64,000 nucleotides of DNA from Sphagnum compactum. Taxonomy: Eukaryota. This document shows positions 1-22,590 of this stretch, piece after piece. The number at the start of each line of letters is the position of its first letter. Position 1 is the first letter of the stretch. Under the pieces are notes generated by a model, which saw nothing but the letters and a program-made list of their open reading frames with translations, was not told where the DNA came from and searched no databases. The stretch is taken from contig OZ234494.1 of NCBI GenBank assembly GCA_965153455.1, positions 2,666,001-2,730,000 of the forward strand. The letters are read 5' to 3'. Both the position numbers and the translations under genes were made by a program.

Positions 1-352
1 AAATATTTTGTAACCACTTCGTATAATCCTCACCTAAAGGTCCTAGGCAATCTTCGTGCAACTTTCTCTATTGTGTTCAAGGACCAGTAATCTTGATTGT
101 TTCATGTTCCAATTTTGTAATCATATATCTTCTTGAAATCTCCTGCAATTGTGCCCCATTTGTCTTTACATGCCACATTATTCCTCATTTAAGTGGAGAA
201 CCTTGCATTCATAACCTTTTGCTAAAATTTTGTTCCATTTTGTAACAATAGTCTCAAAATTGTCTTGCACATCGATTGTGTCAAGGCTTACCACATGCTT
301 TTCCTTTTTGGTTTTAACAAGTGCAAAAATTTCATCATGCTCCAATTTTGTT
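1..352 (-). pseudogene. Degenerate trihelix/Myb-SANT-like DNA-binding domain ORF (trihelix TF or PIF/Harbinger-type Myb ORF relic); runs off the left edge
   Basis: Manual minus-strand translation gives ...EIFALVKTKK...TKWNKI / MNARFST*MRNNVACKDKWGTIAGDFKKIYDYKIGT*NNQDYWSLNTIEKVARRLPRTFR*GLYEVV. This matches the trihelix pattern CKDKW..L..D(Y/F)KKI.D....YW......R...LP..F...Y. It has three stops and a frameshift. Confidence 0.7.
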
Positions 353-937
353 GGCATGATTTGCAGCCTTGAACCTACTACACATTGGAATTAACTATCT
401 AGTTAGATATCTTCTTGTTTTTCCTTTTCTTTTTTGATGGAGCAGGTATTTCATCATTGAGGGAATTGCATTGAAAATTTCTTTTGCAACTACACACAAA
501 AAGGTATGAAATATGTTTCTATTTTACATATATGTGAAATAGACATGTTGATGGTTTGTGATACCATTATTGTCCCTCCATCCCCATGCCTATAGGTTCT
601 TTGGTGGTTTTGCTTACCACCTGTAACCTTCAAAAAGTCCCTCCTCTACTATGTACCTTTTGTAACCAATTGTCTTCCCTATGAGCTTTTGCTTGCTACC
701 TATAGGAGTGCCTTCTAGCCTACAGGAGGTAACTTGGTAATTTGCTCCTCCTTCGATTCCCACCACCCAAGGACTGACTATTACCCTCCTATGGTAGCCA
801 GTAGTTTAGTGTTCAAAAAACTACCCATTGTCAACCCATTACTCTCTGTCTTAAAGAATGCAGAAAGATCAACACCAAGAAGCATCTTACTTACATAACA
901 TACCTTACTCTACCTTCCACATTTAGTACAATAATAA

Positions 938-1335
938 TGTAACACAAGACATTCGATTCCTTCAACCATCTTTCATTAAATCACATACCAAGTACGTACA
1001 TCCATTTTTCCCATCACTTTCCAAAGAAAGTTTTACATATCCCACACAAGTTTCTAATATCATTCCCTCATTCTCTCTCACTTCCTCTATCCCCCTTCCC
1101 ACATATCACACACAAGGCCCACATTGACCCTTAGAAAATAGAGCCCTTATCCTAATCCCTTCCTAAAATACTCTTAGATGATTGGGTGGATTACCTCCAA
1201 CCGCTCACTAACCCGAGCTACCTAATCCCATTAACTTCACCCCTTAGGTAAGGGACGGGAAGTCTACCACTAGTAACTAATAGTCACTAGGAGGCCTATG
1301 GAATTAATTAGTCTAGAGATTTCTACCCGTTAACA
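938..1335. mobile_element. Possible solo LTR (~400 bp)
   Basis: Begins TGTAAC (938) and ends GTTAACA (1335). Flanks AATAA / AAAAA match 4 of 5 as a TSD. Composition is more C-rich than the flanks. No second copy in the window. Confidence 0.3.
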
Positions 1336-3869
1336 AAAAACCATATCCACTAGATTTTCAACAAAATATTCATCTTCTAAAATATCAACAATTAATCTTG
1401 TTGTATCAAAAATGCGGAAAACTTTCCACTCAATAAATGCATTTTTCACCCATAGTTTGGCATGGTTGCTAACTTTCTAGTCCCACCTTTATTTACATTA
1501 ACTTCCTTTTCATCAAGATCTAGAAATCAAGTCTTTAGAACATGATCCCTATTAGGAGAATCAAACTTTATCCCCTCTCCAACTTTAGATCTAGAAACCA
1601 TGGCATCACCAATATTGGAAAGAGGAGTCATTTGACAATCAAATGTACAAGATGTAATATCATAAGTAAGACACATAATAGAATTAGATGCACAAAAAAC
1701 AACACCAAATATAAAAGGATGAACAAAAGCATCATCTACATAATATGAATTTGAAAGGATGCCATATTATCCAAGCCTAAAGAAATGTAGGGATCAAAAA
1801 ACTAACCAAACACATTAAGACTACATACATGAGCATCCAATTCAAGGAATTTAGAAATGTTTTCGGAAACAAAAGAAAAATCAACAAACAATTGACCACT
1901 ACCAACATAATCAACAAAAATATCACAACCATCAATTAAACACATTAAATTATTGACATCAAATGTAGAATCAAAACAAAACCCAATAGGATCATATGTA
2001 GAACCAAAACAAAATCCAATAGGAGGACCATTAAACATTGCACAAAAACAAGATAAAACAAAAGAAAACAAAAGGAAGAATGAATGAATAATTTACAAAA
2101 ACTTGTTTGTGGTTACAACCACATAAACATTTGTACAATGCACATAAACACTACCCATGAACTCCAAATTTTTCCCCCCAAAAAAAAACCAACACATAAA
2201 AAATGAAAATAAAAACATGAAATAAAACATAAAAGTCTACATACTTGCAAAACACATGAAATCCATGTAAAATTTGCATAGATGTTTGTGTGGTTGCAAT
2301 CACAGAACCAAAAACATGTAAACAACACAAAATACACAAACATTAAAACCACCTAAAAGATTACACAAAAACAAAAAAATCCATGGCATAGAATAGTCAC
2401 GATGCAAGAGTAGCTATAACGCAGAAAAAAGAAAAAAAGCCATGGAATTGCCATAAACATAAACACAACCACAACACTAGAGTCGCAAAGATGTTGTGGA
2501 CCCATAGCACTTGAAGAGATGTTGTGCGATGAAACACCACACCCAATAAAACAACACAAAATTCGTGCTAATGACGGCAATCCACGAGCAAGAACCACCA
2601 TTAGTGTCTCAATGCACAAAGAAACAATGTAAAAAGAACAAGTTTGAAACACTTCAAAGCTCACAACAAAGCAACGACAACAAAACTTCTCCAAACTGCC
2701 ATGAGGAAGTAACAACAAAAACAATGCCACACAACAACAATGCACAATGATGCAACGAGAGACAAATGTGACACAAAGACACAACCAAAATAGATGAAAT
2801 GAACATCACAAAATGACTCGGCAAACATTTTATGTGCATCATAAAATCTACTTCTAGCAAAAAGAAACAGATGTTGTGCGATGCCCTTTTGGTGAAAGTG
2901 GAAGGACTGCATCTTTGCATCGTGCTTTCTGCTTTCAAAGGAGCAACCTAGGCCGTAGGATCATAAAATTGTGCATGCATCCGATAGCAGAACAATGACA
3001 ATGCTTGCCATGGAATAATAATCTGGGCAGTGAGATGGACTCAACGGAACTAGATTGAATGGTTACAATGATAAACCATTAGATCTTCAGATCTGAAAGC
3101 AGACAGTGCTTTACTTAGGTGAAGAAGGTCCTACTACCGGGGCCTTCTCCTATACATAAAGCACTCAGAACAGCTTCCTAATGTATATTGAGGGCACCAT
3201 ATATTCAGGAATAGCCGTCCTAAAACATGGAAGAGTTCTTATGTCTGAAGAGTGGGAGGGAGCTTGTGCTGATGGATCTTAGGTGTGTAGGTATAAGATC
3301 CCTTCAACTCTTAAGGGGTAGGCGTAAGAACTCCCTCCAGTACTTACAACTTCTGTATTGAATCTAGCAGGCACAAAGAAACATGCAAAAGCAAAAAACA
3401 GTTTAGAAAATGTTTTGGGACGTGGCCAATCAGATCCAGAGATGAAGCTTAGTGCCTAGAAAGATAGAACATTGCACAGATTCACGCAGACGGTCCGGTC
3501 TGCGCAGGCAATGCACAGTCTCGCCCAACAGTGCACTAGACGGAGCTCGATGGGGGCCCGGGGAGAGAGGGGGGGGTGGACAGGGGGTAAGCACCTACGT
3601 AGATGAGGCAATGACATCACATGAGTGTGTACCTAAACTACCACCACCACCACCAACCCGCTTTGCAGAATCTTGTAGGAAAGCTAGGTGGGTTCAAAAG
3701 CTTGAGCTAAATGTAGGCATGAAACTTCCAACGAAGCTCATCTTGGCACGTAATTCTTTCATCATTTAGAGCTAGCAAGCTAAAATGCAGGCATGAAACT
3801 TCAACCGAAGCTTGCTCGCTTGCTCGCTCATTCTCTCTTTCTTTCTTTCTTTCTTCCTTCTAGAGAGTG

Positions 3870-3909
3870 AAACCCTAAACCCTTGGAACCCTAAACCCTA
3901 AACCCTAAA
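3870..3909 (+). repeat. Short interstitial plant telomere-type repeat (AAACCCT)n, about 5 units
   Basis: aaaccctaaaccct-tgg-aaccctaaaccctaaaccctaaaa read directly. Confidence 0.8.
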
Positions 3910-6900
3910 AGATGTAATATTATTATATTTATTAAATTTTGCTGAATTTTTTTTAAAAAAATTTGAAGAATTGTTTTACATACATAGTTTGGGTTTGCAG
4001 TCAAATCAATGTTTTGTTGCTGGGGGAGTTTTGGAACCAATTTATGCATTCTTCCTACTTACCACCTATGAATCCCCATAGAACCAATGAACTCTAGTAG
4101 TTAGTTACCCCACAAATTTTTTAAAAAAAGAGTGAATAAGTCGAGATGGTTGTAATAAATGTACTCTCATAATCCATATCTACAATTTTAGATTTAAATA
4201 CATTAACTTAAACCAAATTTTTTTTTTGGTTTGGTTCAAGTAAGTAGTAAGAGTTTTGACAAGAGTTTTGTATAACTGAAAAGTTATTATGGCATGAAAA
4301 ATAGGAGGAGAATGGGAAATGTAAGATTCTAACTCATAATTTTGCTATGTAAAATATTTTTATCATAGCCAAATATGAATTAAACCCAAAACCAACATTG
4401 AAGACTTCTAAATAATTTATCCACTTGCAATATAGCTTCAACCCCACACTAGTTAGAAGTATAAGTCTTAAATTTATACATCCATCTACTAACTAAAAAC
4501 AAAATAATGATGAAATTTTATTTTATACACAACCTCTTATAAATACTTTGAAGGGTTACAACATATTGTATAAATTAGATTGAATTGGAGAAATTTGTTT
4601 TTTCTAGTGTAAATTCGACTAATTTAGCTTTTTTTTTTGGGGAGAAAAAATGATACCACTATATGAATATATATAAACCCCCTGCTTGGGATTTATGCAA
4701 TTCATGTAATGTTAAAAAGATTGGAATTTTACAACTTGTGTAAAAAAAATGGATTTCTATTGATATGACCAAAACATAATTTGGTGTAATAATTTGTGGC
4801 ACATATGAATTAATTAAGTCTTGGTGCAAAAGAACTTAATTGAATTCTTTCAAAGTATCAAATATCATGCGGTTTACAAAAAGAGCACACAAAATTTCCT
4901 TTAGTGGTGGTATGTCAATCATATGCAATGTTTTTTTTTTAATGCGACAAATTTTGTCATTTCTTTGACCCAAAAAAAAATGGGAAAAAATGTTCTTCTA
5001 GTAAAAATTTGACTAATTTTTTAATTTCTGGAAGAAAATTGGCCAATTTTTCACATCAAAAATTTGAAAATTTTGAAACATGAAAAACCCAAATCATATG
5101 ATGTGTGAACTATTTTTCATTCAAAATAATATTGTTGTTTGTTTGTTGAGGATAATTATGGAGTTGGCATATTTGTTTTCTTTTATGAAACTGAAACGTG
5201 AATTTTTTTGCCAAGTCGTGAAATGTTTTGTTTTTTATTTGTGAAATGTTTTGTTTTTTATTTGCATGCTTCAACAACTCCCTCTTTATTAATAGGTGGG
5301 ACATGGGACTTATATGAATTGGTATTTCAAGCCAACTTGTGGGGAAAATAAGAGTTACTAAGATTGTGGTTTTTTATTAAAGTTTAGTATTTATAATTGA
5401 CTATGATGTTTAAATCAACTATAGACCAAAGAAAATATTGCTTGGACATTAATATGATAAATTACATGGTGACTTTTAGATGAAGAAATTTCACTATTGG
5501 ATGGGCATTCATTGTGGAGAAAATAAAGGAATCTCCATGTGAAGTCATGTCGTGTTTGTAAATTTTAACCACCAAACATTAAATATTGGTAAAATTGTCT
5601 ATTTCCAATTAAAACCCTTCCAATGGAAATAGCATCCAAGTTTCATGAATGGCCAAATTTTTAAATGTTGTGACTTGTAACCATAGTATTTTATGTTAAT
5701 TTTGAATAAATTGTGGCATTACTATCTAGTTTAGGCACCAAACTCAAGAGTTGTAATTGAAGTTGAAAAGAAATTTCAACCCAATAAATGTTGTGGGACA
5801 CCACTAATTTCAACCATAAAAAACTATGATGGTTGAAATTTTGGGAAAATAATTGGTGATAAGTACAAGTTGTGGGGATCAAATGTTTTGATTAACTTTA
5901 TGACCTATATGTTGATTATAACATGTATAATTTTGATATGATTTTCAAATTCTAATATGACATTTACTTTATCAATTGAGTGAAAACTACATTTGGATGT
6001 ACTTATGTAAAAGCTAAAACATTTTATCAAATAATTTAAATATATGGGACGTTGTTGATTAACATACCATATTAAAACATTTAAAAGGATTTTCCAAAAC
6101 GATGTATTCATAGTCATCATCAGATAATATGATTTGATATTGTTACCACTTCAAACACTATTATCATTATTTAATTTGAGCATTCCACTTATTCAATAGA
6201 AACAGTATTTAACAAGGTTCAACTACAATCTAATCAATGTCTAGTTATGTTGGTTAATGTTGATTACATTAAATAACAAGGTCCTAGATCCAATTTTCAC
6301 AATAGGAACCTGTGTTTAGGGAAAAGTTTTGGTTTAATCCAAGGTTGTATAGTGTCAATTCAAAAATTATAGAATTAAATGTAATTCATATTTTCTTAAA
6401 AATATCCAAATATTATAATTTATACCTATGTTATGATTTTTTCACAAAATTATATATATATATATAGGAAACAACTTTTTATTCTTTTTTTGAATTTAAT
6501 ACAAATATTTTCTTAGCATCGTATACCCAATTGGCCCCCCAACTTTTGTGCCCTTTGTTTGCATTGTTATTTTTGCTTAATTTTTTTAACCTAATTAGTT
6601 TTGATATTTGAAATTGTCTCAAGAATTGCATTAAATTAAATGGAATGATTTTGAATTTGTTTAAATGTTGTTCGTGAATTTCTTTAATCTATTTTGCATA
6701 AATCTCAAAACCTAAGCTTTGATATTTGAAATGGCCACAAAAATTGAATAAAATAATAATTTTTTAAATTGCTACAATTGTTTCATATTCATGTAGGTGA
6801 ATAGGGGAAATGAATGTAGTTATGAAAAAGAAATAAGATAATCAAAAATGAAAATTTCAAAAGGTATATGATAAAGAGGTATTGTAAAAAAGGTAAATTT

Positions 6901-7000
6901 GTAAAAGTAAAGTTAATGAAGGGAAGGAGTGAGGAAGTTAGGGCTAATAATTCATTTTATTTTGAATAACATAATGACATCATTACATAATTATATAGAT

Positions 7001-7787
7001 GGACATATTCACAATTAGGGTACCCCTTTTTGGACATAAGGACTCAAAGATTTTGTTTTCGCTATTTTTCAAATATAAAATCTAAATGAAATAAATTTAA
7101 GTGAAAGATATTAACTATCGAAAATACATTGATGGTCATTAATGATAATTCAAATTATGATCATTTTCACGGTGGTGGTGATTTTTCACATATGTATGTA
7201 ATTTGCATAAATATTTTGGTAAAAAACCCATAAATGTAGAAAATGAATACATAATCTTTTATATATAAGTTAACATGTTTTCTTGCATGTTTTGTCGACA
7301 CTTGGGGGTATAAATCCTAAGCCTAGGGAATATAAAAAATCAACCAAAAATGGAAAAAGAAAAATCTTTTTTTTTGTTGCCCTTTCAGAATGGATTTTAT
7401 GGCCTTTGAAATTTCTTATATCGTATCTTATTTAATCAAATGCATTATATGAACATTGCCAAACATAGATATATGCATTACTTATCCATAAATTTTTTTT
7501 GAAATGAATTGCATTGTTTAGTACATTCTTTTTTATTCCTTTAAAATTAAAATTACAATTAAAACAATGACTCAAATTATTTGAAAGGACTCAAAAGGAC
7601 ATCTATATTATATCCAATTTATTTTTAGATTTTTTTAATAGATTAACATGACATCATTCTAATTATAGTCATATACCAATTCATTGTAATCATGAAATAG
7701 TAAATGTAATAAAAATCTTTTAATGGTTTTTTGTAGTCCTTTTTTTGTTAGACCGTCCTTTTGGGTATACTGATTATGAATATGCCC
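7001..7787. mobile_element. MITE-like element with degenerate ~25-bp terminal inverted repeats
   Basis: Left end GGACATATTCACAATTAGGGTACCC versus reverse complement of right end GGGCATATTCATAATCAGTATACCC. AT-rich non-coding interior. No clear TSD. Confidence 0.5.
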
Positions 7788-10700
7788 ATATGGTTTGAAG
7801 CATGGATTCTAAACTAGAACCCCATGGCTGAACTAAAAGCTTTGGATTTATGGAATGTACTTTAAATAAATACTTAGATTTTCATTTAAACCTCACTTTG
7901 AAATGTGAGAAAAAGGTAGAAATAATGGTAAAAGATATGAAGATTTATTAATTTGATAATATCTCCTCCCCACTCTCCCCCTTTTATATTTCCTTCATAT
8001 GTTTGCATATGTGTTCCAATAGTTCATGATTATTTATGTCAATCACAAATTTGATTTTACAATATAACATGGACACGAAAAGGCACATGTTTCATGTCCA
8101 TGTTATTAAGAAAGGAAAGTTATTTTTTGAAAAGGTATTGAATTAATAATTATTTTGAATATAAAAATACTTACACCATTACATGGATAGCTCGACCCTT
8201 GAAACCATAGAATCTAAAAATATCCAAAACATCAATCCAAAAAACATTTTAGTTTGCAAAAGAGTGAAGATTCCCAAGTTCCGATTGCAATTATCCAATT
8301 TTGATACTTGTAAACTTGAAAAAATATCTCCATTACTTGATAATGTTATGAAACAAAACACATTTAGTGTCAATCACAATTTCAAATATTTCAATGTGGA
8401 TAATTGACAACATGTGTTTATATAATTATTTGATTCAATTTTTAGATCATACTAACTATTAAAATGTGTAATAATGTTTACATAACAAAAAATAAATGTA
8501 TCATTATTTGAGGATATTTTAATAAAAAAACACTTTCCTATGTAGAAGGCATTATAAATAAGAAAATAAAACCCAAAAATAACCTTGTAACACAAAAAAA
8601 GATTCACATACATGTTATAAAACCTATCTATGTGGGTGGCTTCAATTGAGTCCTTATGATGTTAATGTGTCAATACAATGTTTTCAATTTGTAAAGGTTA
8701 TGTTAAAAAGGAATTTAGGAATTATAACTATTGATGACTTCGAATTTTAAACTCACACTTTAGATGTCAAATTTGAAAAGTCTTTATTTGTCTTGCCTTA
8801 AGTACTCCATGAGATGTGTTGCAAGTTGCAATCATCAAATGTGTCAATGTCAAAATCTTTGGGGAGAGTTGGACAGTCATGTTGGTGTTGTTGCGATTGT
8901 CATAAAGCGACATTTTCCTTCTTATATTGGAGGCCAAACTTCCATGAAAAATGATAGTCCATTTTCCATTATTCACAACTTGTCCATGGTGAACATACAT
9001 AGAAAGAACATTAAATGTGATCTAACAATGAGTCATGTTGGATCTCACTTGAACTTCAAAAGTAAGATCTTCAAATTAAAGTAGCCTTGATATCAATGAG
9101 CTTTTGACATAATAACCCCACAAAAATTTTTTAAGTCTATTTGCATCTAAACAATGATACCCTTGGGAATATATTTTCAATAATGTCAATTCTAGCTACT
9201 ATTTCAACAAAAGAAATTTAGTTTGAAGAAATTTTCTAGAAAGCATACAACAAATATAAAATTTGGAGGGGACATAATTATTTCTTGCTCCATGACTAAA
9301 TAATGAAAATTAAAAAAAAATTTAATAAAAAAGAAGATAATCACATTTCATCCAATATATGTAGAAGTTGGGATTTTCATGTGGGGGAGCAAGTGTACAA
9401 TGTTTTTTATTCTTGGTAATTTTTCACCTCTTGGTAAATTGTTTTTCCATAAATGTGAAAATCAATGTTTTGTGAGGTTTCTAATTGCCAATTTTTGATA
9501 AACAATTGTATGTTCCTAGGATAATTTCCATATTCCACACCAAGTTCTAACCAATTGAAGATGTTTAAATCTAGTTTTAATATTTACATTCATATTTTGT
9601 TTACAACCAAATTTGGCTAAATTGTATTATGGATCATTGCCACTCATGTTACATCACAAAATAGATTTTTAAAACATTGATATATATATATATAGGACAA
9701 AAAAGGCCAATTCTTTACACAAGATGTGAAGGGTAACATGTTCAAAGCTAGGGAGCCTTAACATTTACAATGGCACCAACAATTAAAAAAATATTAGTGG
9801 ATAACACATCATTTGCTCCCTTTCCCTGTATGTTTTCCTATAGTAAGATCCCAAATGCAATGCATTCATATCTTGTAATTACGTAGCCATTTTTCATAAT
9901 TATTTTTATTTTCCAATTATAAGTAGTTTAGTGGGAGCTAATTATTGTTGAGACATTGACTAATCATAGGAAACTAAATATTAATAAAGATAATCACACA
10001 ATTTTATGTTTTGAAGTTCTCACAATATCGTTGATTTCAAAATTAACAGTGTATGTTTATATTGAATTTATAGCTTTTATAAAGAGATATCATTTTACAA
10101 TGACAAGTGAGCCTTACAATCCAATAGTAAAGAATAAAACATATTGTTTTAATAACACTTGGAATTGAAGGTTTAGTTGTTTGTAGACAAAGTATACACT
10201 TCTAAAAAACATTTACAATTGAATAATCTCATTATTCCTATGCATGCATGTTCAAACTAAACACAATGTATAGATTCAAATTCAAAAAATAACAAGATAA
10301 ACTTTCATGCATGTTATTACAAATGAACAGGAATATAAAAGATTCAAACTCATCTCCTCTTATAGGCTAGGTGGTTCTTATTAGTAACTAAACTAGTTAT
10401 CTAGCATTAATTTAAATATGGAGCACTAATTAGTAATTAAAGTAGTTACATAACGAATAAGAACTAATATACTAACTAATAACTAGTTAGTTAATATTTA
10501 TACATATTTTGATTTAACACTTACAAAAGTCAAATATGTAATTATTATCAAAACTAATCATTTAACATTTATAAAGGTTCTATATTAACATTTATAAAAA
10601 ATTTAAAAACATTTACAAAGGTCAAAATTGTACTTAATGCAAGGTTAACATTAGTGTTTGTAGCATATGACATTAGATGGATTGTCATTGTTTTAAGATG

Positions 10701-13266
10701 CAAACTTGTAAACAATTTATGGATACACATGTAATTAATTCTTAAAAGACATTATATATATATATATATAATTATTTTGTTTTGTTTTTATTTTTGGGTG
10801 CTTAGATGAAGTTGATGTGAACCAATGGCATGTTTTCAACTTCACCAAATGTTATAATAAATCTTTCAAGTTGCCCAAAACAAGTCAAAGATTTGTGACA
10901 ACTTGTGCAAACAAAAGTTGATGGTAAATAGATCAAGGTAACATGTTCAATATATGACCAATTCTGACAAGCTATCTAAAACAAGTCATCATTGCAAAGG
11001 GATGATATCAAACAAAGTTATAAATATAATTCTAAATTTGCTTTGATAGAGTTAAACATTTATGCCCAACTACAAAAATGCATTGTATTAGCATTCTTAA
11101 GATCATCGATCATACTCAGAAATCTTGGCAATGAACAATTTTTTTTGTTGTATATAATACAATATCCTCCAAATTTGAAAGTAAAAAAACAATGTTTCAT
11201 TAATTTATGAATTACTTGTTCTTGCAAACTTGGGCAATGATTTTAAAGTATTAACTCATCCACTAAATCAATCACTAATTATAATTAGAGCTTGCATAAA
11301 CAAATTCCAGTTTTCCATGGAAAACCTTGAACTATCCAATCATGAAAGCAAGAATATTGTTTTTTATTATTTGTGGGGATTGAACCATGTTCACATCATG
11401 TGTTGACCTAATATTCAAATCTTGTAAAACGCATCTTTCATTTAAAAAATAATAATCTTCATGTTTGCAACCCTTCACATTGTTTTCAATGCCTTACAAT
11501 GTGAAAATAGATGACAACATGCATACAATTTATAAGATGTGACTAAGAATCAAACTTGCATTTCACCACCATATTTTTATTCATAACCAAATAAACATTG
11601 ACCCTTCTAGTACAAAAAACTAGATTGCATGACCATTATATCTTATAAAAATAGAATCCCTATTAGATTTGTTGTTGTTGGTGGTTGTGTGTCTTGACAT
11701 TTTAAACATGCAAAAAACAAAAGCAACTTATGTTTGTAGCAATCAAACATGATTTTTTTTTTGGTCTTGGATTTGCTTTTGGGCATTCTTGATGTGTTAG
11801 ATTTATTGAAACTAGATGCAATTCACTTCTATGCAAAGCTCTTTAATGAAATTTGTTTGGGGTTTTATTTTTTCCAACTAATTTTTCAAACTCAATGAGA
11901 CCAACCTTGGCCAAATTCTTTTCATCAACAATACAAAACTAAAGATGCATGATGAGTACAAGACTGTGCAATCAAAAGGTAATTTCAACTACCATTGCAA
12001 CATCAATGTAGTAAACTATGTCTACTAACACATAGTAATCCATTGTTTACTTGGTGTTTGTTTGTTCCACACAAATGGAGTAATGTGACCCCAAAGTAAA
12101 GCAAAACCCAATGTGCAATCATAGAAAGAAGACACAATGTTTTGCAAGGAAAAAATGACAATTGTAGCTCCAAAAGTTGCAAGTATCATTCTACAAGTAT
12201 GTCAACACATTACTTGCTACATGTGGTTTATTCCTAAAAACTAAGCACAATATGTAAAGGTGCAACATGACAAACAACTTTCCTTCCACCATTCAAATGG
12301 TTTGACAATACTTTCTACACCTGTAATCTATAATTAAGTTGTGATTGAAGTCCAAAAAAAACCAACCAAAACTCAAAGGTGATAAAACCTACAATGGCAA
12401 GCAACAATGAGAAAGGGAAAATAGGTTTAGTGAGCTTACAAAGAGCTTTTTGTGGTTTGAAAGAGGTTGGTGCCATCTTGTGTTGCTTGCAAAGATTGCA
12501 AATAGTTCACAAAAGTGAGGCAATAATGAAAAAGGAGGAGGAGATGATGGAAGAAAAGGGGATGCATAGGTGGAAAATAACAATGTCCTAAAAAAAGGGG
12601 GGACGGAGGAACACCTACACAACCTTGGCCACCTAGGTGAGAATGACATGGTCATCCATAGAAAGCAACAAGATGGATATTTTCATCAAGTGCTAGTATT
12701 GGTGTTTGTGCTAGTTCACCACCGGTGTCTATTGAGCCTTTACTTATTGGTTTTTAAGTCACATAAGGCTAGGGTCCCCTTGGGCATAGGTAATGGGGCA
12801 CAACCACATTATACATCACTTGTAGTAGTAATAGTAGCTATAAAATGGATCTCAAGGGTTTGTGCATTTGTAGTATTCTAAACCTTTTCAAGTTTCGAAT
12901 TCAAGTGTTGAATAATTATTTTATTTTTCAAAATCCACTTCAATGGTAAAAACATAATTTGTGAAAAAATTGCAATAAATATAGATAATTTGTTAAACAA
13001 GTTTATTTGACTTTGAACCTCTAATATAATGAGATATTCTATAACATTTTTTCTTTTTTCTTTTTGCAAAAATGAAAAGACATAATGTTCCACAAAATAT
13101 AGGATAGATAATTTTCTTCAATTATTGGATACTCTTTACAATGGTGGATTAAGACATGAAGCAATAAGCTCCTAAGTTTCCACCAATTTTAATATTTTTC
13201 CCTCCTTTATAATTTAAAAATTTCAACATTCAAAAAAATGATTTCCAAAAAGTTTGACATTTCCAG

Positions 13267-13500
13267 AAATAATCTAATTACTAGTGAATCTAAAAAGGTA
13301 TTATGGTAGTAGTCATGAAAATAAAATATAAATATAAAAAATTCCAAATAATCTAATTATTATTAAATTAAAAAAATTCTTATGGCAGTAATCATAAAAA
13401 TAAAATATAATATAAAACTTCAAAATAATTTAATTACTACTAAATCTAAAAAGGTATTATGGTAGTAATCATAAAAATAAAGTAAATATTTAAAAATTCA
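13267..13500. repeat. Tandem repeat, ~78-bp unit x3
   Basis: Unit aaataatctaatta..a.t.aat.taaaaa..t.ttatgg.agta.tcat.aaaataaa.. recurs three times. Confidence 0.8.
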
Positions 13501-13997
13501 TCCACTATGTTTCTTTATAAACATCATTGCTTTCCTATTTTTTGGAAAAATGCATAGCTATTTTTCATTGTTGTTTTACTATTCCATAATCGATGTTTAG
13601 GAAGATTCAAGTGGTAACAAAACAATGTTTTAATTGATGTCCATGGTAGCTGCTATGGACATCAATTATGTCTGGTAACTAGTGAAGGCAATTGGGTTAC
13701 TAAACATAATTTTGGTGCAAATGTGCCTTGACTATGTTTGATAACATGGTTACCATTATTGGTTACCTAATACATAGTAATTTCTAAGGTTTCATTTCTT
13801 ACTTTGAAACGATTTGTCCATTCAATGTTTTTAATTTTTCCCCGTTTTCAATTTTGTGATGTAGCACAATGGCCTTAAGTGAATTAACACCTACACTTAC
13901 ATACTTGAACATGAACTTGTATTCCTGGTGAATGAATGCTTATAGCTTTATTGCGTTTAGCCTCTAAGGCCCCATTTACATTATGGTGAAGGACTGT

Positions 13998-14995
13998 TGT
14001 AACACGAAATTAGGTCGCCACACCAGTGTGAACACTGTATGATCTTGGGATTTAAGTTTGCTTTATTAGCCGTCATTTTGCTGCGGCAATCTCTCCATTA
14101 CTTCTGCATGGAAGTGCATGGGGGGTTTTCTCTCTGGGTGTGTGTGAGATGTTGTACAGGAAGGAGGTGGCGCGAATGATGGGAAGGAGTGGAGTTGCAT
14201 TGATGAGCCGAAGTGGAAGGCACGGCGGCGGCTGAGTAACGGAAAAAGGAAGCTTGTGATGGAAGCTACGAAGAAAGCGGAGAGGAGGAGGAGCTGCCGG
14301 TCTAGAAGGGTGGCTGGTTTTTTTTGGGTGAGCGATTAGTAGATCAGCACTGGAGATGAGAGGATAGGCAGATAGACAAAAAGAGCATTTTTTGAGGAAG
14401 AGCAGGCAGAGACGCTTGGAGGATAGCTAGAGAGGTCTGAGATAGACTGAGAGGTCTGATTTTTTGAAGAGCGTTTTGAGCTCTGGAGTTGTTTTCTGGA
14501 TCCTGGCTGATCATTGCTTAAGGAGGCCGAGATAGAGCTGAAGAGGTCAAATGAGCTTAGAAGAGTATAGACGTATCACTTTGTATGTCTGTTTTTGTAG
14601 AGAACTTGGCTGTGTTGCTGAAACTTTCCGCTGCGCCAGCGACTTAGCTAAGTGGGATGCATGATTTTGATGAGAACACCGGAGTAGGGAAGCTTGTGCT
14701 GTCGGGGAGATTCTGTGAATTATGAGTTATGAATTTAAATCTCTGAAATTCTGTCTTGTTGTTTTGCATGAGTAGACACTGTGTCTGAGGAAGTTCAGTG
14801 AAGGGGCTTTTGCATCGGTGATGTGTGCATCCCATTAGCTTTTAGTAGGACTAGAAGACAGAAGCTATGGACTTAGATTAGCGCAATTGTCATGCCGTTT
14901 GTTTAACAGACGATCACCCATTCGTATTTCTGTCAGGGTGAATTCAACAGAGGGGTCGAGTCGTTCTTTGACCTTTCCCTTTTCTTTTGGTATCA
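13998..14995 (+). repeat. 5' LTR
   Basis: Aligns without gaps to 20774-21771, with about 14 mismatches by eye. Starts TG and ends CA. Confidence 0.95.
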
Positions 14996-14999
14996 GAGC
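14988..14999 (+). promoter_or_regulatory. Primer-binding site complementary to the tRNA-iMet 3' end (TGGTATCAGAGC), overlapping the LTR end
   Basis: Exact canonical plant iMet PBS 12-mer at the 5' LTR/internal boundary. Confidence 0.85.
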
Positions 15000-15064
15000 T
15001 GGTTCCGTTCATGTAGCTTTGGTAGAACCTGTGGATGCTTAGGTAGAATGATAATTGGAGTATC

Positions 15065-15731
15065 ATGTCTTCGTCTAGTGCAGAGGAGGGTAATGTAGAA
15101 GAGTTGACACAGGAGATTCGTGAACAACAGCTCGTCAATAGGTTCGATTTTCTGACTTCGCAGAATGGACCCCAGAAAGGAGCTGTAGTCCTGCGTTTCC
15201 TGGGATTTGGAATAGTAACTCTGGTAGGAGTAGATCCAGCTGAAGCTCGAGTTGGAGATATAGCAGTAGAAGTAGCTCATAGTGGTTTTTTCACTCGCGC
15301 TCAAGTTTGGTTGAAGGTGACAAATGGAGCAAGGGGATGGGCATCAACCTCACAGTTATAGACGAAGTACTACTACACCTCCTATCTTGCGTAGGGTAAC
15401 GCCTTTGTTTGCTGAAAGGCAGCGTAGAGTACCCAGGCTAGGGAACATCTGGATTCCCAAGCTTGCTGTAACGCCTAACCATTTTGTCAGATTGTATATT
15501 CCTGGTGTGGAAGATTTGTTTCAGGAGGGAGATCGCCTACTCAGGGTGGAGCATGGTGGATCGAGATCTCGCCTCATGAGCTGGAGGATATGGCGCAACC
15601 AAGAGGGAGAATGGTAATTCCAACAAGAATCTACAAATGAGCAGAGTTTTTCCACTTTCGCTTCTATTGTTACACCTTTGAGACCAGTGGCTGAGGGAGC
15701 TCAGTCTGACTTTATAGAGTGGCGCGGGTGA
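15065..15731 (+). pseudogene. Extra ORF between PBS and gag (unknown function, ~220 codons, one frameshift and one stop)
   Basis: ORFs 15065-15361 and 15324-15617 overlap in adjacent frames. Reading past TAA 15615-15617 continues open to TGA 15729-15731. I recognise no domain. Confidence 0.5.
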
Positions 15732-15865
15732 TGTTTGTCTTTCTCAAAATGAAACATGAACAGAAGCGGCTGAGAAGCTGATCAATTTTGTTGTTATTTG
15801 ATTGTGATTTGAGGAACCGTGTGTGGAGTGTATGTAATTGTGGTGTGTAGCTGCGTATTTGCAAA

Positions 15866-18800
15866 ATGACTAGTCCCCAGGGAATGGATGAGCTGTTCTG
15901 GGGACGAGACCATGAGGATGTTAATGATTGGGCGGAGCGACTTACCATGGCTGCTGAAGTGCGAGACCTGAATGGAGACAAGCTCTTCAAGATTGCCAAG
16001 TTGAATCTGAGGGGTCGAGCCAAGGAGTGGTTCAAGAGGTTGCAGCCGGCACCAGCCGATTGGGCTGAACTGAGGACACTGATAGTGCAGAAGTATGGTG
16101 ATGTTGATGTTGATGACATCAGGATGAAGCTGGATGCCATCAAGCAAGAACCCAAGGAGAGAGTTCAAAAGTATTTTGAACGTCTCGACAAAATGTTTCA
16201 GAAGGGCCGACTACAAGACGCCGAGCAGAAGCAAAGATTCTTGGCCAGGTTAAGGCCAGAAATTCGAAAATTGTGTGTGGTGAGAACGTATGCAGACATT
16301 GAAGAATTAGTTGGTGCTGCGACGGAAGTGGAGAGAGTTATGGGTGAGCTTGGGGAGACTCCGTATGAACCTCTGAAAGAGGAACAAGAAGAGGAGTCCT
16401 CGCAAACCATTATGGAGAAACAGGTCACTGCTCTAAACAATACCCTCATCAATTTCTTCAAGGGGGCTGTGTCTAATCCAGAGGCTTCATCGTCTTCCAC
16501 CATGTTTGGAGGATGCCAAATCTGCGAAGGAGGGGACCATATGGCCACCACCTGTCCAAGGTTGACTGAAGCACGGCCGAAATGTGCCAAGTGCAAAATG
16601 CCTCATAGGATAGAGAATTGTGGAATAAAATGTTCCTTCTGCTCAGGGTTGGGGCATTCTAAGGACCGGTGCTAGAAGAAGCCCAAGGATGGGAAATCGC
16701 AATTTGGGGCAGCAAACTTCTTGGAGGTGTTGCTTAATGATGAGGCAGCGACCGAGCAGCAGCTTAATAAGCTGTGTGGTAATGAAAACCTTTTCTCTTA
16801 TACCCGAGTGCCGAGAAGGAGAACTCTTGTCGAAGTAGCACCAGGAGGGGCTGTGTCGATCCCTGAAACTATAGGAGAAGGAGTTGGTGCAAGCCGGGAT
16901 ACTGCAGTTAGGTCCAAAATTCTTTCGCACTTCATTAAGGGAAAGATTTCCCTCTCACCTATGGAAACTATTCTGATGATTCCTGGAGAACTGGAACACC
17001 TTGAGAGTTTGGTGAAGCTGGCAAGGAGAAAGAGGGATTCAGAAGCGACTGAGAATCAAGTGTCAGTGGTTTCCGCGAGTCCGTCACTAAAGAGGATCTG
17101 CATCAACAAGACCCATTGAAGCAAGACTCTGCATTTGCTTGTGGAGATCAGCAACTATGTTGTTGAAGGTCTGGTGGATACTGGAGCTTCCATGTCTGTT
17201 ATGGCTGCAGCTGTAGTTAGAGAGTTGGGCTTGATGCATCTTGTGACAGGGACTGAAACTTACAAGACCGCATCGGGAGTGGTCACTCAGGCTTTAGGAT
17301 GGATTGATGAGATGACAGTCAAGGTAGGAGGCGTACAGTGCGCCATGACCTTTATGGTTGTGGACACAGACAGTTACGACGTGCTGCTTGGACTGGACTT
17401 TCTGATGAAAATTGGAGCAGTTGTGGATGTAGAACGAGGTCTGCTACAAGTGAGACATGGTCCTGGGACCAATGTGGAGGTGTTGCCGTTGACGGTGGTG
17501 AATTTGCTGCAGAGGATGAATTCGGGAGATCTGGTGCAAGAGGCGTCGACCACCTGGAAAGACACGCGCGCCAATAGAAGTTCTAACTGGATGCCAGGAC
17601 AGGATCAGACGATTGTGACCAAGGAAGACGATGCATACACCTCGGATTCTGATGCTGGTACTGATAGCAGTGAATATTATGATTCGGAGTCTAATCAGTT
17701 GAAGCAAAGTGATTGCGAGGATGAGTTTGGGGATGCTGAGTTGGAGAAATTGGTGAGCTCAGAAGGGCCGCAAGAAATTCTGCGACTGGAGCTACAAGAG
17801 CAGGTTGATGGGTTCATGGCGGAAGAGGTCACAGATGCGGATGATTACGCAGACTAGATCAGATGGGTGTCTGATGCAGAGCAGGGCAGACAGGCCATGT
17901 ATGAATCCACGCATAATGTACCTATGCCATTGCTGCTGCAGCAACCCAGCACAGACCACAATTCTACGATTCCAGTGCTGTTGCAAACTGTCCGGGTGAA
18001 AGATGGTAACCCTAATTACAAATTCGCTGAACAATTGGCATCGTTCAGCCATTAAGAAATGGACAATAGGTGGAGGGAGATCTGCCAGCGAATCAGGATA
18101 GACACCGGATTGGATGATGAAAAACAGCAGCAAATCTGGGGAATTCTGGAGCGGTACCAAGATGTCTTTGCTTGGAACAAGGGAGAACTAGGCTGTTGCA
18201 CCATTGGGGAGCATTGTATAGATACGCAAGGATTCCCACCTTGCAAAGCATCTCCTGGTCGATTATCTTATTCGGAGGAGGCTGAAGTAAAAAGGCAAAT
18301 AGATGTCCTGGTAAATTTGGGTAAGATGAGGCCCAGCAACTCTGAGTATGCCTGTCGGGTGACTCTGCCAGTGAAGAAAGATGGGAGCAGGCGTTTCTGT
18401 GGAGACTATCGGCCACTTAACGCACAAACGCGTCGAGATTCATTTCCGATGCCACTCGTGGAGGATGTGATTGATCAGCTGGGAAACTCATCATGGTTCA
18501 TTGCCTTAGATTTGCAGTCTGGTTTTTGGCAAATTCGGATGGCTCTAGAGGACATGAAGAAGACCGCTCTGATTACTAAGACTGGATTGTATGACTGGAC
18601 AGTTATGCCATTCGGACTGAAGAACGTAACGAGTATGTTCACCCGAACTATGTCAGAGGTCTTTAAGGATTTGGGCAACAAGTTTCTGAAGGTATTCGTT
18701 GATTACCTCAATGTACACAGCAAGAGTTGGGGGGAGCATCTTCAACATCTGGATATAGTTCTTTCAAACTCAGGGAAGTGAATCTTAAACTGAACCCAAA

Positions 18801-20727
18801 CAAGTGTTGCTTTGCTGCTAAGACTATTACATTTCTGGGCCATGTGGTAAGCAAGGAGGGCACCAGACCGGATCCTGGGAAAATCGAAGCAGTTCTGCAT
18901 TTCCCAACACCGAAAACAGTCACAAGTGTCAGGTCGTTCTTAGGTCTGACAGGTTACTACCGAAAGTATATTCGAGGCTATTCAAGATTAGCAGGTCCTT
19001 TGTTTGAGTTAACAAGGAAGGACGTTGCATTTGTGTGGGATGTGGGCTGTCAACAGGCATACCAGGCGTTAAAGGCAGCACTAGTGGGCGCGCCTATGCT
19101 CACACGACCAAATTTCAAAAGAACATTCTGGCTGGACGTAGACTGGTCGCCCAAGGGTGTTGGAGCTATATTGTCACAGAAAGAAGGGAGGTTTGAGAAG
19201 GTGGTAGCGTACGCCAGCAAGAGCCTAACAGAGGCACAGAGGAAGTTCCATCCCATGGAAGGGGAATGCTACGCGCTGATTTGGGGCGTCATGCATTTCA
19301 GGCAGTACTTGCACAGAAATCATTTTATTCTACGCACAAACCACAAGCCGCTGGAATGGTTGGCTACGGTGTCAGATGCGCATGGCAGGAGAAGAAGGTG
19401 GGTAGATATGTTACAAGATTTTAGCTTCAAGATAATACACCGACCAGGACTCAAGCATACAAATGTCGATGCCTTGAGTAGGAATCCAGTTGGACCAGCT
19501 GCTGATGACGATGACTTCAGTGAAGAGATACAAGATATTGCAGGCACTCAAACTGATGCACATACAGGAGAAGAGGAGTTTCTCTGTGTTCGGACAGGCA
19601 AGGAAACAGAATGGCTCGGTGTAAGGAGAAGGGATAGGGAGTTAGTACAACACCGTACCTGTTGTTTCGGGATTAACCACTGTAGGTATGACGGCAGCCA
19701 TCAGTTGTATGTAGTTGACGTTGTATCAGGAGAAGAGCAGCCCAAGGAGGTTGTTTCAGGTGAAGCAGAAGCTGCAAATGGGGGTGAGCTTGTGTAGGAC
19801 GATGGTGAGAGAATGGTGGTGAAGAGAAGGAGACCCCAATACTTTGACAAGCGGCAGCAACTAGACCTGGTATTGGAGGCTCAAGAACTAGCTGAGTTTA
19901 GGGACCATGAGTTGAGTCCTACTGAATCTGATGATGAGGAAGATCAGAGAACGTTGGCTGAGATCCGTCGAAGGTACTTCTGGCATCATCGAACTGAAGA
20001 TGTTAAGATGGTAGTCAGAAGGTGCCAACAATGCCAACTGGTGAGGAGCGAAGAATTCGAGATGATGTGCAAGAATTACGGAATCCAGCATCAGCGCACT
20101 GCACCTATGTGGCCTCAATGCAATGGGATGGCGGAGCGCATAATCAAGACCATCAAGCATGGCATCACTGTTCTTGCTGCAACACCAGGCAATGTGGATT
20201 GTTGGGACGAGCATCTGGCTAAGGTTCTGTTTGGGTACCGATGTGGGATCCAGGCTAGTACAAGGTTTTCACCCTTCATGATTCTGACTGGTCGCACACC
20301 ACGTCTCAGGGCAGACAATTACCTGCACGCTCTGACTGCTAAGATTGATGATGGTGCGGATGTGGAGGTTGCTGCAGCACAGTTTCTCCAGAAAATGGAG
20401 CTTATTGCAAGCATCCACGAAAGCGTTTTGCTCAATGTGGAGCAAGCACAGAAGCAGCAAAGAAAGACTTATGCCACTCAGAAAGGTAAGCATTTGTTTG
20501 AGGGACTGGTTGCAGGGGCGACGATGGTGAAGATGAAGAAACCAGGAAAGAGAAGAGCTTTATCTGCAAGCTGGGAGGGTCCATATCAGTTCGTTGGGCA
20601 TGCTGATGGGCAAGGAAACTTTGACTTTGAAGAATGCAGTCGGATATGCATCATCCGAGATGCTGACGGACACCAGTGGGAAAGGTCTCGGCGGGATCTC
20701 CAGATCTATCACGTTCCACCAGACTGA
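15866..20727 (+). pseudogene. gag-pol polyprotein (Gag with 3 CCHC knuckles, aspartic protease, RT, RNase H, partially deleted integrase), disrupted
   Basis: CCHC motifs CQICEGGDHMATTC, CAKCKMPHRIENC and CSFCSGLGHSKDRC. Protease LVDTGAS. RT RFCGDYRPLN, LDLQSGFWQI, MPFGLKN and FVDY (normally (Y/F)VDD). RNase H DVDWS...GAILSQ...AYASK...ECYALIWGVMHFRQYL. INT PQCNGMAER. In-frame stops end at 16675, 17119, 17857, 18055 and 19797, with a frameshift near 18762. Confidence 0.95.
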
Positions 20728-20752
20728 GTGAAGCTGAGGGACTCAGCTTTTT

Positions 20753-20766
20753 AAAGAACGGAGGGG
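20753..20766 (+). promoter_or_regulatory. Polypurine tract (AAAGAACGGAGGGG)
   Basis: Purine-rich run ending 7 nt upstream of the 3' LTR. Confidence 0.8.
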
Positions 20767-20773
20767 TTACATA

Positions 20774-21771
20774 TGTAACACGAAATTAGGTCGCCACACC
20801 AGTGTGAACACTGTCTGATCTTGGGATTTAAGTTTGCTTTATTAGCCGCCATTTGGCTGCGGCAGTCTTTCCATTACTTCTGCATGGAAGTGCATGGGGG
20901 GTTTTCTCTCTGGGTGTGTGTGAGATGTTGTACAGGAAGGAGGTGGCGCGAATGATGGGAAGGAGTGGAGCTGCATTGATGAGCCGAAGTGGAAGGCACG
21001 GCGGCGGCTGAGTAACGGAAAAAGGAAGCTTGTGATGGAAGCTACGAAGAAAGCGGAGAGGAGGAGGAGCTGCCGGTCTAGAAGGGTGGCTGGTTTTTTT
21101 TTGGTGAGCGATTAGTAGATCAGCACTGGAGATGAGAGGATAGGCAGATAGACAAAAAGAGCATTTTTTGAGGAAGAGCAGGCAGAGACGCTTGGAGGAT
21201 AGCTAGAGAGGTCTGAGATAGACTGAGAGGTCTGATTTTTTGAAGAGCGTTTTGAGCTCTGGAGTTGTTTTCTGGATCCTGGCTGATCATTGCTTAAGGA
21301 GGCCGAGATAGAGCTGAAGAGGTCAAATGAGCTTAGAAGAGTATAGACGTATCACTTTGTATGTCTGTTTTTGTAGAGAACTTGGCTGTGTTGCTGAAAC
21401 TTTCCGCTGCGCCAGCGACTTAGCTAAGTGGGATGCATGATTTTGATGAGAACACCGGAGTAGGGAAGCTTGTGCTGTCGGGGAGATTCTGTGAATTATG
21501 AGTTATGAATTTAAATCTCTGAAATTATGTCTTGTTGTTTTGCATGAGTAGACACTGTGTCTGAGGAAGTTCAGTGAAGGGGCTTTTGCATCGGTGATGT
21601 GTGCATCCCATTAGCTTTTAGTAGGACTAGAAGACAGAAGCTATGGACTTAGATTAGCGCAATTGTCATGCCGTTTGTTTAACAGACGATCACCCATTCG
21701 TATTTCTGTCAAGGTGAACTCAACAGAAGGGTCGAGTCGTTGTTTGACCTTTCCCTTTTCTTTTGGTTACA
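20774..21771 (+). repeat. 3' LTR
   Basis: Direct repeat of 13998-14995. Ends TGGTTACA followed by the TSD. Confidence 0.95.
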
Positions 21772-22590
21772 CTGTGACTATGGAAATCCTAAGAACCTTC
21801 AAAATACATCCAAAAGTCATATTGTGGGAGTTTAGCAATCATTTATGTGTAGAACTAAGCATCAAGTGTCGAAGTACCTTAACATATATATTATAATGAA
21901 ACAAAAATAAAGTAATTTTTGATCCCATGTAAAATTTTAATTTAAATTTGATATTATATGTAATTTTTAAAAACCATTTCAAGTTTTAAGAAGGGATAAA
22001 ATGAAAAGATAATTGTTGAAGAAATGAAAATAAATGGTCCCAAGTGCTAGTTTTAACTAACTACAAAATTAGTGGTAGGACCCTCTTCATTTGGCATTTT
22101 TTATTAAAATAAATCTTTTGTATAAGTCAAAATCAGATTATTGGCACTTTTGCAAAATTTGAGTTGAAAGTTTACCAATAAAAAAAGAGAAAAAAAATGC
22201 TACAAGTTCCAAAATGAGGTCCAAAGTGAAATGAAATTATTTTTATTTTTTTAAAAAAGGTTTAAGTTTGTTGGTTTTAACTACCTCCAAAATTAATAAC
22301 AATTCACTCTCCTTGTAAGACCATTTTGATTCAAATGTATTATAGTGGGTATTGTGCGAAAGTTAGAAATATAAATAAATAAATAAATTTTTAACCCAAT
22401 TATGGTGGTCTAACATAGTTCATGTCAAACCCATTTCAAATAGGTGGGCTAGCATAAATTCCCTTGGACCATAAACATTATTCGCATTGCATTTAATGTC
22501 CATTTTTCATCCATTCACATTTCCATAGTCTAATTGTTTGCATTTATCCCTTTGGTTAGTCACCTTTAATCACTTTCAAAATCAATGGAA

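Follow-up and report, generated by a model that had tools for sequence, protein, structure and literature searches.

The locus considered here raises the question of how a retrotransposon whose two long terminal repeats (LTRs) end differently could form the right-hand end with which it integrates. It lies in a stretch of 64,000 nucleotides from Sphagnum compactum (assembly GCA_965153455.1, contig OZ234494.1, positions 2,666,001 to 2,730,000 of the forward strand; the whole stretch is hereafter called the window) and consists of one copy of a Ty3/gypsy element. Canonical plant Ty3/gypsy elements have two LTRs, the order gag-protease-reverse transcriptase (RT)-RNase H-integrase, a 12-nt primer-binding site (PBS) motif, a polypurine tract (PPT), integrated termini of the TG...CA type and a short target-site duplication (TSD), and the window copy resembles them in having direct LTRs around an internal region, a TSD and the expected order of pol domains. 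It departs from them in the placement of its ends. Specifically, a canonical element has a 5′ LTR that ends in CA, a PBS a few nucleotides further on, a PPT that abuts the 3′ LTR and matching LTR ends, whereas here the CA-bearing end sequence is missing from the 5′ LTR and stands after the PPT instead.

Element ends in the window and in related loci

In the window, the 5′ junction reads ...CCCTTTTCTTT-TGGTATCAGAGC, in which TGGTATCAGAGC is a PBS of the tRNA-iMet type (an excerpt of PMC5258746 names the motif as complementary to the 3′ end of tRNA-Met), and the 3′ LTR terminus reads ...CCCTTTTCTTT-TGGTTACA. Over the roughly 994 positions common to both LTRs there are 12 substitutions, which corresponds to 98.8% identity, and this identity ends after TGGT. 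The PPT is present, but 7 conserved nucleotides, TTACATA (hereafter the X-box), separate it from the 3′ LTR. The last two G of the PPT together with the X-box give GGTTACA and then TA, and GGTTACA is also the sequence of the element's right end. With the start of the 3′ LTR this makes a perfect palindrome, GTTACA-TA-TGTAAC (20766-20779), which reads as right end, TA and left end. An earlier note on this DNA had drawn attention to these three features (5′ junction, 3′ end and palindrome beside the PPT), and a check of the sequence found each of them where it had been placed. The same note held that LTR identity runs into the PBS, which is so, although the overlap amounts to the 4 nt of TGGT rather than the 8 nt given; likewise, its range for the element, 13993-21775, takes in the flanking CTGT duplication, and the element proper spans 13998-21771 (Table 1).

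Neither motif is rare in itself. The PBS sequence has a single match in the window at up to one mismatch, and at least one such match occurs in 19 of 100 shuffles; perfect 14-nt palindromes number 31 in the window. It is the position of the palindrome and its recurrence among relatives, not its existence, that go beyond chance.

Relatives were obtained as metagenome loci fetched by the RT/RNase H segment, and the counts given here concern the best 80 of 483 confirmed relatives, which share 76-90% amino-acid identity with the window RT/RNase H segment. Sites that match the PBS with at most one mismatch are found in 38 of the 80 loci. All 39 of these sites follow a pyrimidine or a T-run, and none follows CA; once duplicates are removed, each of the 31 distinct junctions is a T-run joined to the PBS. 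The textbook layout, with a 5′ LTR ending in CA ahead of the PBS and identical LTR ends, was found neither in the window element nor in its relatives. An unrelated element on the minus strand of locus L025, with a PBS-like site at 15266 of the reverse complement, does read canonically as ...TTAACA-TGGTATCAAAGC and serves as a small control (n = 1) that the method can see canonical junctions. Within the window and loci combined, about 0.9 Mb, this site is the only other iMet-type PBS found on the opposite strand.

The 3′ ends are equally distinctive. LTR ends were located with 80-nt end probes, and the 82 ends so found, duplicates included, continue into the PBS (40), into (G)nTTA[CT]A (40) or into a broken end (2). 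The corresponding numbers after duplicate removal are 31, 33 and 1, the broken end being one site seen in both L038 and L039. Among the distinct ends that do not lead into the PBS, 33 of 34 read as a T-run, then (N), then GGTTACA or GGTTATA. The PBS octamer TGGTATCA stands at none of the 33 distinct true 3′ ends, all of which read TTACA or TTATA, and the lone 3′ end with TGGTATCA, in L051, is followed by internal region and so is not a true end. L051:6236-13313 is a tandem of the form LTR-internal-LTR-internal, in which the second LTR leads into the PBS and the same internal sequence; it is most simply a product of unequal recombination.

With respect to the region ahead of the 3′ LTR, 30 of 31 distinct 3′ halves read ...GGRGGG-GTTACA-TA-TGT[AG]AC, with the GGGGTTACATA block directly 5′ of the LTR start (TGT[AG]AC) and with the X-box and that start, GTTACATATGT[AG]AC, exact; L046 carries one change. 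When 16 sequences are aligned, the GGGGTTACATA block hardly changes, in contrast to the PPT proper, which varies at several columns, and the X-box is so nearly invariant that covariation between it and the right end could give no signal. LTR starts are of two types, TGTAAC and TGTGAC, and the right end GGTTACA occurs with both. The boundaries that the earlier note had predicted for other copies at the 5′ junction, the 3′ end and the PPT thus recur in these relatives. Copies with identical LTR termini and a PBS outside the LTR, which the note had named as evidence against its proposal, were not seen among them.

Of 22 candidate elements, 9 without a right end inside the locus were dropped, which left 13 with both ends. 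Ten of these are flanked by an exact 4-bp TSD and two by a TSD with one mismatch, the remaining one being the L051 tandem; an exact 5-bp duplication outside the CA was found in none of the 13. These TSDs show that integration is concerted, which needs two integrase ends. The integrated form is thus TGT[AG]AC...GGTTACA with a 4-bp TSD, and integration is precise and two-ended.

Formation of the right-hand end

In standard reverse transcription, the parental 5′ LTR is the source of both new copies of the U5 segment, and each ends where the first base was added to the tRNA. A tRNA-iMet PBS that abuts a T-run would therefore make the T-run the right end of the cDNA, and the earlier argument that iMet priming would leave a right end without CA indeed follows from the standard model. 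None of the ends that tRNA priming could give (the T-run; TGG(T); or TGGTATCA if eight tRNA nucleotides are copied) yields TTACA. Because the RNA does not include the tip of the parental 3′ LTR, the right-end octamer would have to be rebuilt in each cycle. The right-hand integrase site, GGTTACA, is inherited only as the copy directly 3′ of the PPT, with TA between it and the left-hand site TGT[AG]AC, so that priming at the PPT would put GGTTACA at the left cDNA end. The predicted priming sites of this clade are, in other words, out of register with its integrase sites. Off-register ends hold across the clade and are not an accident of one copy, and they strongly imply that the right end is formed in a non-canonical way.

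The best available explanation is that the two cDNA ends are joined before integration, and to this explanation as a whole we would assign a probability of roughly 0.5. Minus-strand synthesis primed by the tRNA would place the right terminus of the cDNA at ...CTTT(T) or, should copying extend a few nucleotides into the tRNA, at ...TGG(T), and plus-strand synthesis primed at the PPT would give the left cDNA end an extension, (GG)TTACATA. The right end would then be joined to this left extension, either by ligation into a two-LTR circle or by a template switch, in which the plus strand would use GG(T) microhomology to pass to the X-box as copied in the minus strand. The product of either joining would be ...CTTT-T-GGTTACA-TA-TGTAAC..., which integrase would cut on both strands after CA (CA^TA^TG, with a 2-nt stagger and 2-nt overhangs), and the resulting TGT[AG]AC...GGTTACA ends would insert with a 4-bp stagger. 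The right-end octamer would be remade in every cycle, and the X-box and PBS junction would be inherited via RNA. The ligated circle and the template switch appear to fit the data alike. A stricter form of the proposal, in which linear cDNA would be unable to integrate, end joining into a two-LTR circle or head-to-tail concatemer would be obligatory and integrase would act on CA^TA^TG in the manner of a restriction enzyme, is more doubtful, and we put it forward only tentatively.

The joint between T-run and GG offers a further line of evidence. C or A stands ahead of GG in 5 of 33 TTACA-type ends, compared with 0 of 31 PBS junctions (one-sided Fisher estimate of about 0.03), and the T-run/GG joint of 3′ ends also shows an additional T, or the gain or loss of one G. 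Of 15 LTR pairs aligned, L008 and L051 were misaligned and dropped; among the 13 that remained, in which L002 and L003 are one site, an indel falls in the last 6 columns of 3 pairs, set against 1-4 gap openings per whole pair of 730-1200 nt. Variability of the joint that is confined to 3′ ends fits a junction made afresh in each cycle, and untidy 3′ joints may be tolerated because they lie inside the CA. At one insertion site sampled twice (L029 and L030, same flank), the joint reads TTCGGTTACA in the one and TTTGGTTACA in the other, a C/T difference between samples or haplotypes.

Several points weigh against the joining of ends. Slippage in the T-run is a competing cause of the joint variation, for which the counts are small, and in the TGTGAC-type families the DNA palindrome contains one mismatch. 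Each version also carries an assumption of its own: cleavage of the PPT two G inside the G-run for ligation, and copying of 3-4 tRNA nucleotides for the template switch. The mechanism as a whole is read from anatomy alone. The relatives are known as metagenome contigs without assigned hosts, all 29 that were scanned are degenerate (longest stop-free stretch 228-502 amino acids), and the activity of the clade is suggested only by LTR identities of about 92-99%. Moreover, in reads and contigs from ordinary genomic or Hi-C DNA runs, aligned to window positions 20650-21900, a joint of LTR end to LTR start is absent from the 5 joints listed, at a right-end depth of only about 14 reads. The absence of junction reads says nothing firm about circles.

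The alternative that survives best, although we regard it as unlikely, is that the right end is copied from some other template without end joining, for instance from a second primer or RNA with a 3′ end complementary to TGGTTACA, or from an unusual first-jump product. The X-box would in that case be kept for the specificity of PPT cleavage, as an extension that integrase binds for deep 3′ processing at the left end, or as a palindrome for RNA dimerisation. The complement of the right-end octamer does end in CCA, as a tRNA 3′ end would, the X-box and LTR start are self-complementary as RNA (with G-U pairs allowed in the TGTGAC families), and the lack of a junction joint among those listed, at low depth, is compatible with such a route. 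However, no candidate template was found, and the conserved 12-nt iMet PBS fixes the start of the minus strand at the T-run. The 7 nt that the right end has in common with the sequence beside the PPT would furthermore have to be a coincidence or convergence on an integrase site, and the variability at the T-run/GG joint would go unexplained.

A canonical linear pathway with a tRNA remnant is far less probable. Here RNase H would leave eight tRNA nucleotides, which would be copied, the CA inside the PBS octamer would be used by integrase, and TGGTTACA would arise later by mutation or conversion. TGGT in both LTR ends is what would be expected if at least 4 tRNA nucleotides were copied, and TGGTATCA does end in CA; the 3′ ends in TGGTATCA that this pathway predicts are, however, exactly those missing from the distinct true ends, and the conserved X-box is left unexplained. 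We give almost no weight to the possibility that symmetric insertions were remodelled at one end by host repair or LTR-LTR conversion, for which nothing specific speaks beyond the proneness of LTR ends to indels: the same 8-nt difference would be needed in every family with the exact 4-bp TSDs left intact, and the window copy, near to a new insertion by its LTR identity, is already asymmetric. We know of no process that remodels one LTR end in that way.

An accident of this one copy, with ends once identical, an AT/TA double substitution and a chance palindrome, or else an assembly error, had been entertained as the mundane account; the 12 other LTR differences and the many 14-nt palindromes lend it some colour, but it is excluded for practical purposes by the recurrence of the same three features in dozens of independent insertions from diverged families, at related loci that differ in flanks and TSDs, and, as regards assembly, by a 1439-nt contig from organism A (X1 record 8) that is identical over the 3′ end and flank. 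This contig covers 21742-21900 with 0 differences, of which only 30 letters lie on the LTR side, and its source may be the sample behind the window assembly. Loss of 8 bp from the 5′ junction of this copy, by a microhomology deletion that joined two TGGT repeats, was also considered, and it was rejected since every relative has the same junction.

Relation to known systems

Integration from an LTR-LTR junction has long been debated for retroviruses. To our knowledge, this route is usually denied, the junction-cleavage results for foamy virus and for human immunodeficiency virus type 1 (HIV-1) being exceptions. An excerpt of PMC1180852 reports that prototype foamy virus (PFV) integrase cuts a palindromic LTR-LTR junction in a restriction-like manner, and part of PMC1905944 reports that HIV-1 integrase also cuts the palindrome at its own LTR-LTR junction. 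As read from the former excerpt, the foamy-virus junction has the form CA-NN-TG, with two nucleotides between CA and TG like that of the clade. The likeness extends to the logic of the reaction, in that one concerted cut would give both processed ends and the junction would explain an apparent asymmetry of the linear ends (PMC1180852, same excerpt). A palindromic CA-NN-TG made of right and left end is present in the window and in relatives, as an internal sequence and not as a sequenced circle junction. The foamy-virus junction is confined to the circle, and both integrase sites are still present in the linear DNA, whereas the clade has a junction-like sequence built in beside the PPT and its predicted linear DNA would be without the right-hand site; the clade also differs in consisting of plant retrotransposons rather than retroviruses, known here from sequence alone.

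A second parallel is provided by DIRS elements, which have a tyrosine recombinase, inverted or split repeats and no TSD. Their internal sequence reproduces the joined ends and is read as a means of regenerating the termini via a circular or joined intermediate; the internal circle junction sequence of DIRS-1 was reportedly described by Cappello et al. in 1985 (cited in PMC5006619). The clade resembles DIRS-1 in carrying an internal copy of joined element ends. It is unlike DIRS in having the zinc finger of a DDE-type integrase (Integrase_H2C2), with the rve domain in relatives, direct LTRs, 4-bp TSDs and an internal piece of only 7-9 nt.

The sequence logic of the clade appears to require the junction: a right-hand integrase site is lacking at the PBS and is kept next to the left-hand site instead. 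If this is true, the clade would represent a natural retroelement that uses the LTR-LTR junction route and would be a clean system for that question. LTR-annotation tools assume a PBS after a CA-ended LTR and a PPT that abuts the 3′ LTR; they may misplace the boundaries of such elements or overlook them, and plant surveys of extrachromosomal circular DNA could take their junction molecules for dead ends.

With respect to classification, the integrase C-terminal chromodomain that marks chromoviruses was not found: PF00385 is absent from the precomputed Pfam domains of 120 listed relatives, many of them fragments. Part of the REXdb survey (PMC6317226) describes Phygy as a moss lineage of non-chromovirus gypsy elements that are short, with coding sequence filling the internal region, lack a chromodomain and prefer NCGN targets; the same source gives 4-bp TSDs for 6.2% of plant elements. 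Set side by side by description only, Phygy and the clade are alike in being bryophyte-associated, in being short with an internal region filled by coding sequence and in having no chromodomain, but the NCGN preference contrasts with the clade, where CG stands at positions 2-3 in 0 of 12 TSDs. The clade would fall within the non-chromovirus gypsy elements. EARE-1 is an example of the canonical layout, with the PBS 1 bp after the LTR (excerpt of PMC5258746). A description of the LTR-end asymmetry was not found in the literature searched, which did not cover the per-element PBS/TSD tables of the REXdb supplement.

The evidence on the host of the clade points to a plant, probably a moss. Runs labelled 'moss metagenome' in their metadata contain small shares of element sequence, and the clusters returned by the Protein Atlas were all generic ones of RT/RNase H; in the top hit, the most frequent taxon was Streptophyta. 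The pattern of PPT and X-box has 0 matches in viral contigs.

The window copy and its surroundings

Table 1. Features of the Ty3/gypsy copy, in window coordinates
Feature	Position	Strand	Remarks
LTR element proper	13998-21771	+	One Ty3/gypsy copy, TGT... to ...ACA ends
Left TSD copy CTGT	13994-13997	+	4-bp target duplication, matched at both flanks
5′ LTR, start TGTAAC, end ...CCCTTTTCTTT-TGGT	13998-14991	+	Part common to 3′ LTR; no CA end of its own before PBS
PBS TGGTATCAGAGC, tRNA-iMet type	14988-14999	+	First 4 nt overlap LTR identity
gag fragment (Retrotrans_gag, zinc knuckle)	15851-16675	+	Pfam
Aspartic protease fragment	17120-17857	+	Pfam
RT and RNase H (RVT_1, RT_RNaseH), two frames	18056-19797 (18056-18781, 18703-19797)	+	Pfam
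Integrase remnant: H2C2 zinc finger and C-terminal part	19798-20727	+	Pfam
Inverted repeat GCTGAG-GGA-CTCAGC	20733-20747	+	Then T-run (to 20752), just 5′ of PPT
Polypurine tract AAAGAACGGAGGGG	20753-20766	+	Sequence and relatives
X-box TTACATA, PPT to 3′ LTR	20767-20773	+	Exact in 30/31 distinct 3′ halves
Palindrome GTTACA-TA-TGTAAC, 14 nt, perfect	20766-20779		Reads right end, TA, left end
3′ LTR, TGTAAC...TTTTGGTTACA	20774-21771	+	Self-comparison of window
Right-end octamer TGGTTACA	21764-21771	+	TGGT in common with PBS; GGTTACA in common with X-box region
Right TSD copy CTGT	21772-21775	+	Matches left copy

The pol domains lie on the + strand in the order protease, RT, RNase H and integrase, with broken frames (Pfam). 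The integrase remnant, which extends to a stop just before the PPT region, has no Pfam match to the rve core or to Chromo; rve is found in relatives, unlike the window copy. Compared with relative P0041, the remnant is without two stretches of about 80 and 94 residues, which include the start of the catalytic core, and the internal region, at about 5.8 kb, falls about 0.5 kb short of the length seen in most relatives (about 6.2-6.3 kb). With no rve core and with integrase stretches missing relative to P0041, the window copy is defective and non-autonomous. In the rest of the window (1-13900 and 21900-64000), no further long direct repeats, PBS motifs or tRNA genes were found. tRNA genes were found neither in the window nor in the 42 loci scanned, and the assignment of the PBS comes from the literature.

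The inverted repeat just 5′ of the PPT is kept in 16 aligned relatives, and compensatory changes in the region of this repeat and the PPT were not found across them by alignment and RNA folding. At the opposite end of the internal region, the sequence after the 12-nt PBS is kept across families, as GAGC-[N]-TGGTTC... or CAGGTTCAAT (window 15000-15011; L025:1688-1700). This conserved stretch may reflect a longer pairing with the primer tRNA.

In the alignment over the 3′ region, many reads part from the window precisely at 20774 and carry varied sequence upstream of it, and these are left ends of other copies. A 1680-nt contig from organism B (X9 record 24) matches the flank from 21771 only, with 3 differences, and then continues into other sequence, which fits an empty insertion site in a related species, seen at the 3′ flank only. 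The raw run X21 has zero depth on the unique flank. Most differences among family copies over 20650-21783 are of two kinds, G>A and C>T (in X21, for instance, at 44 and 30 places), a pattern that deamination of methylated cytosines would be expected to leave in silenced repeats.

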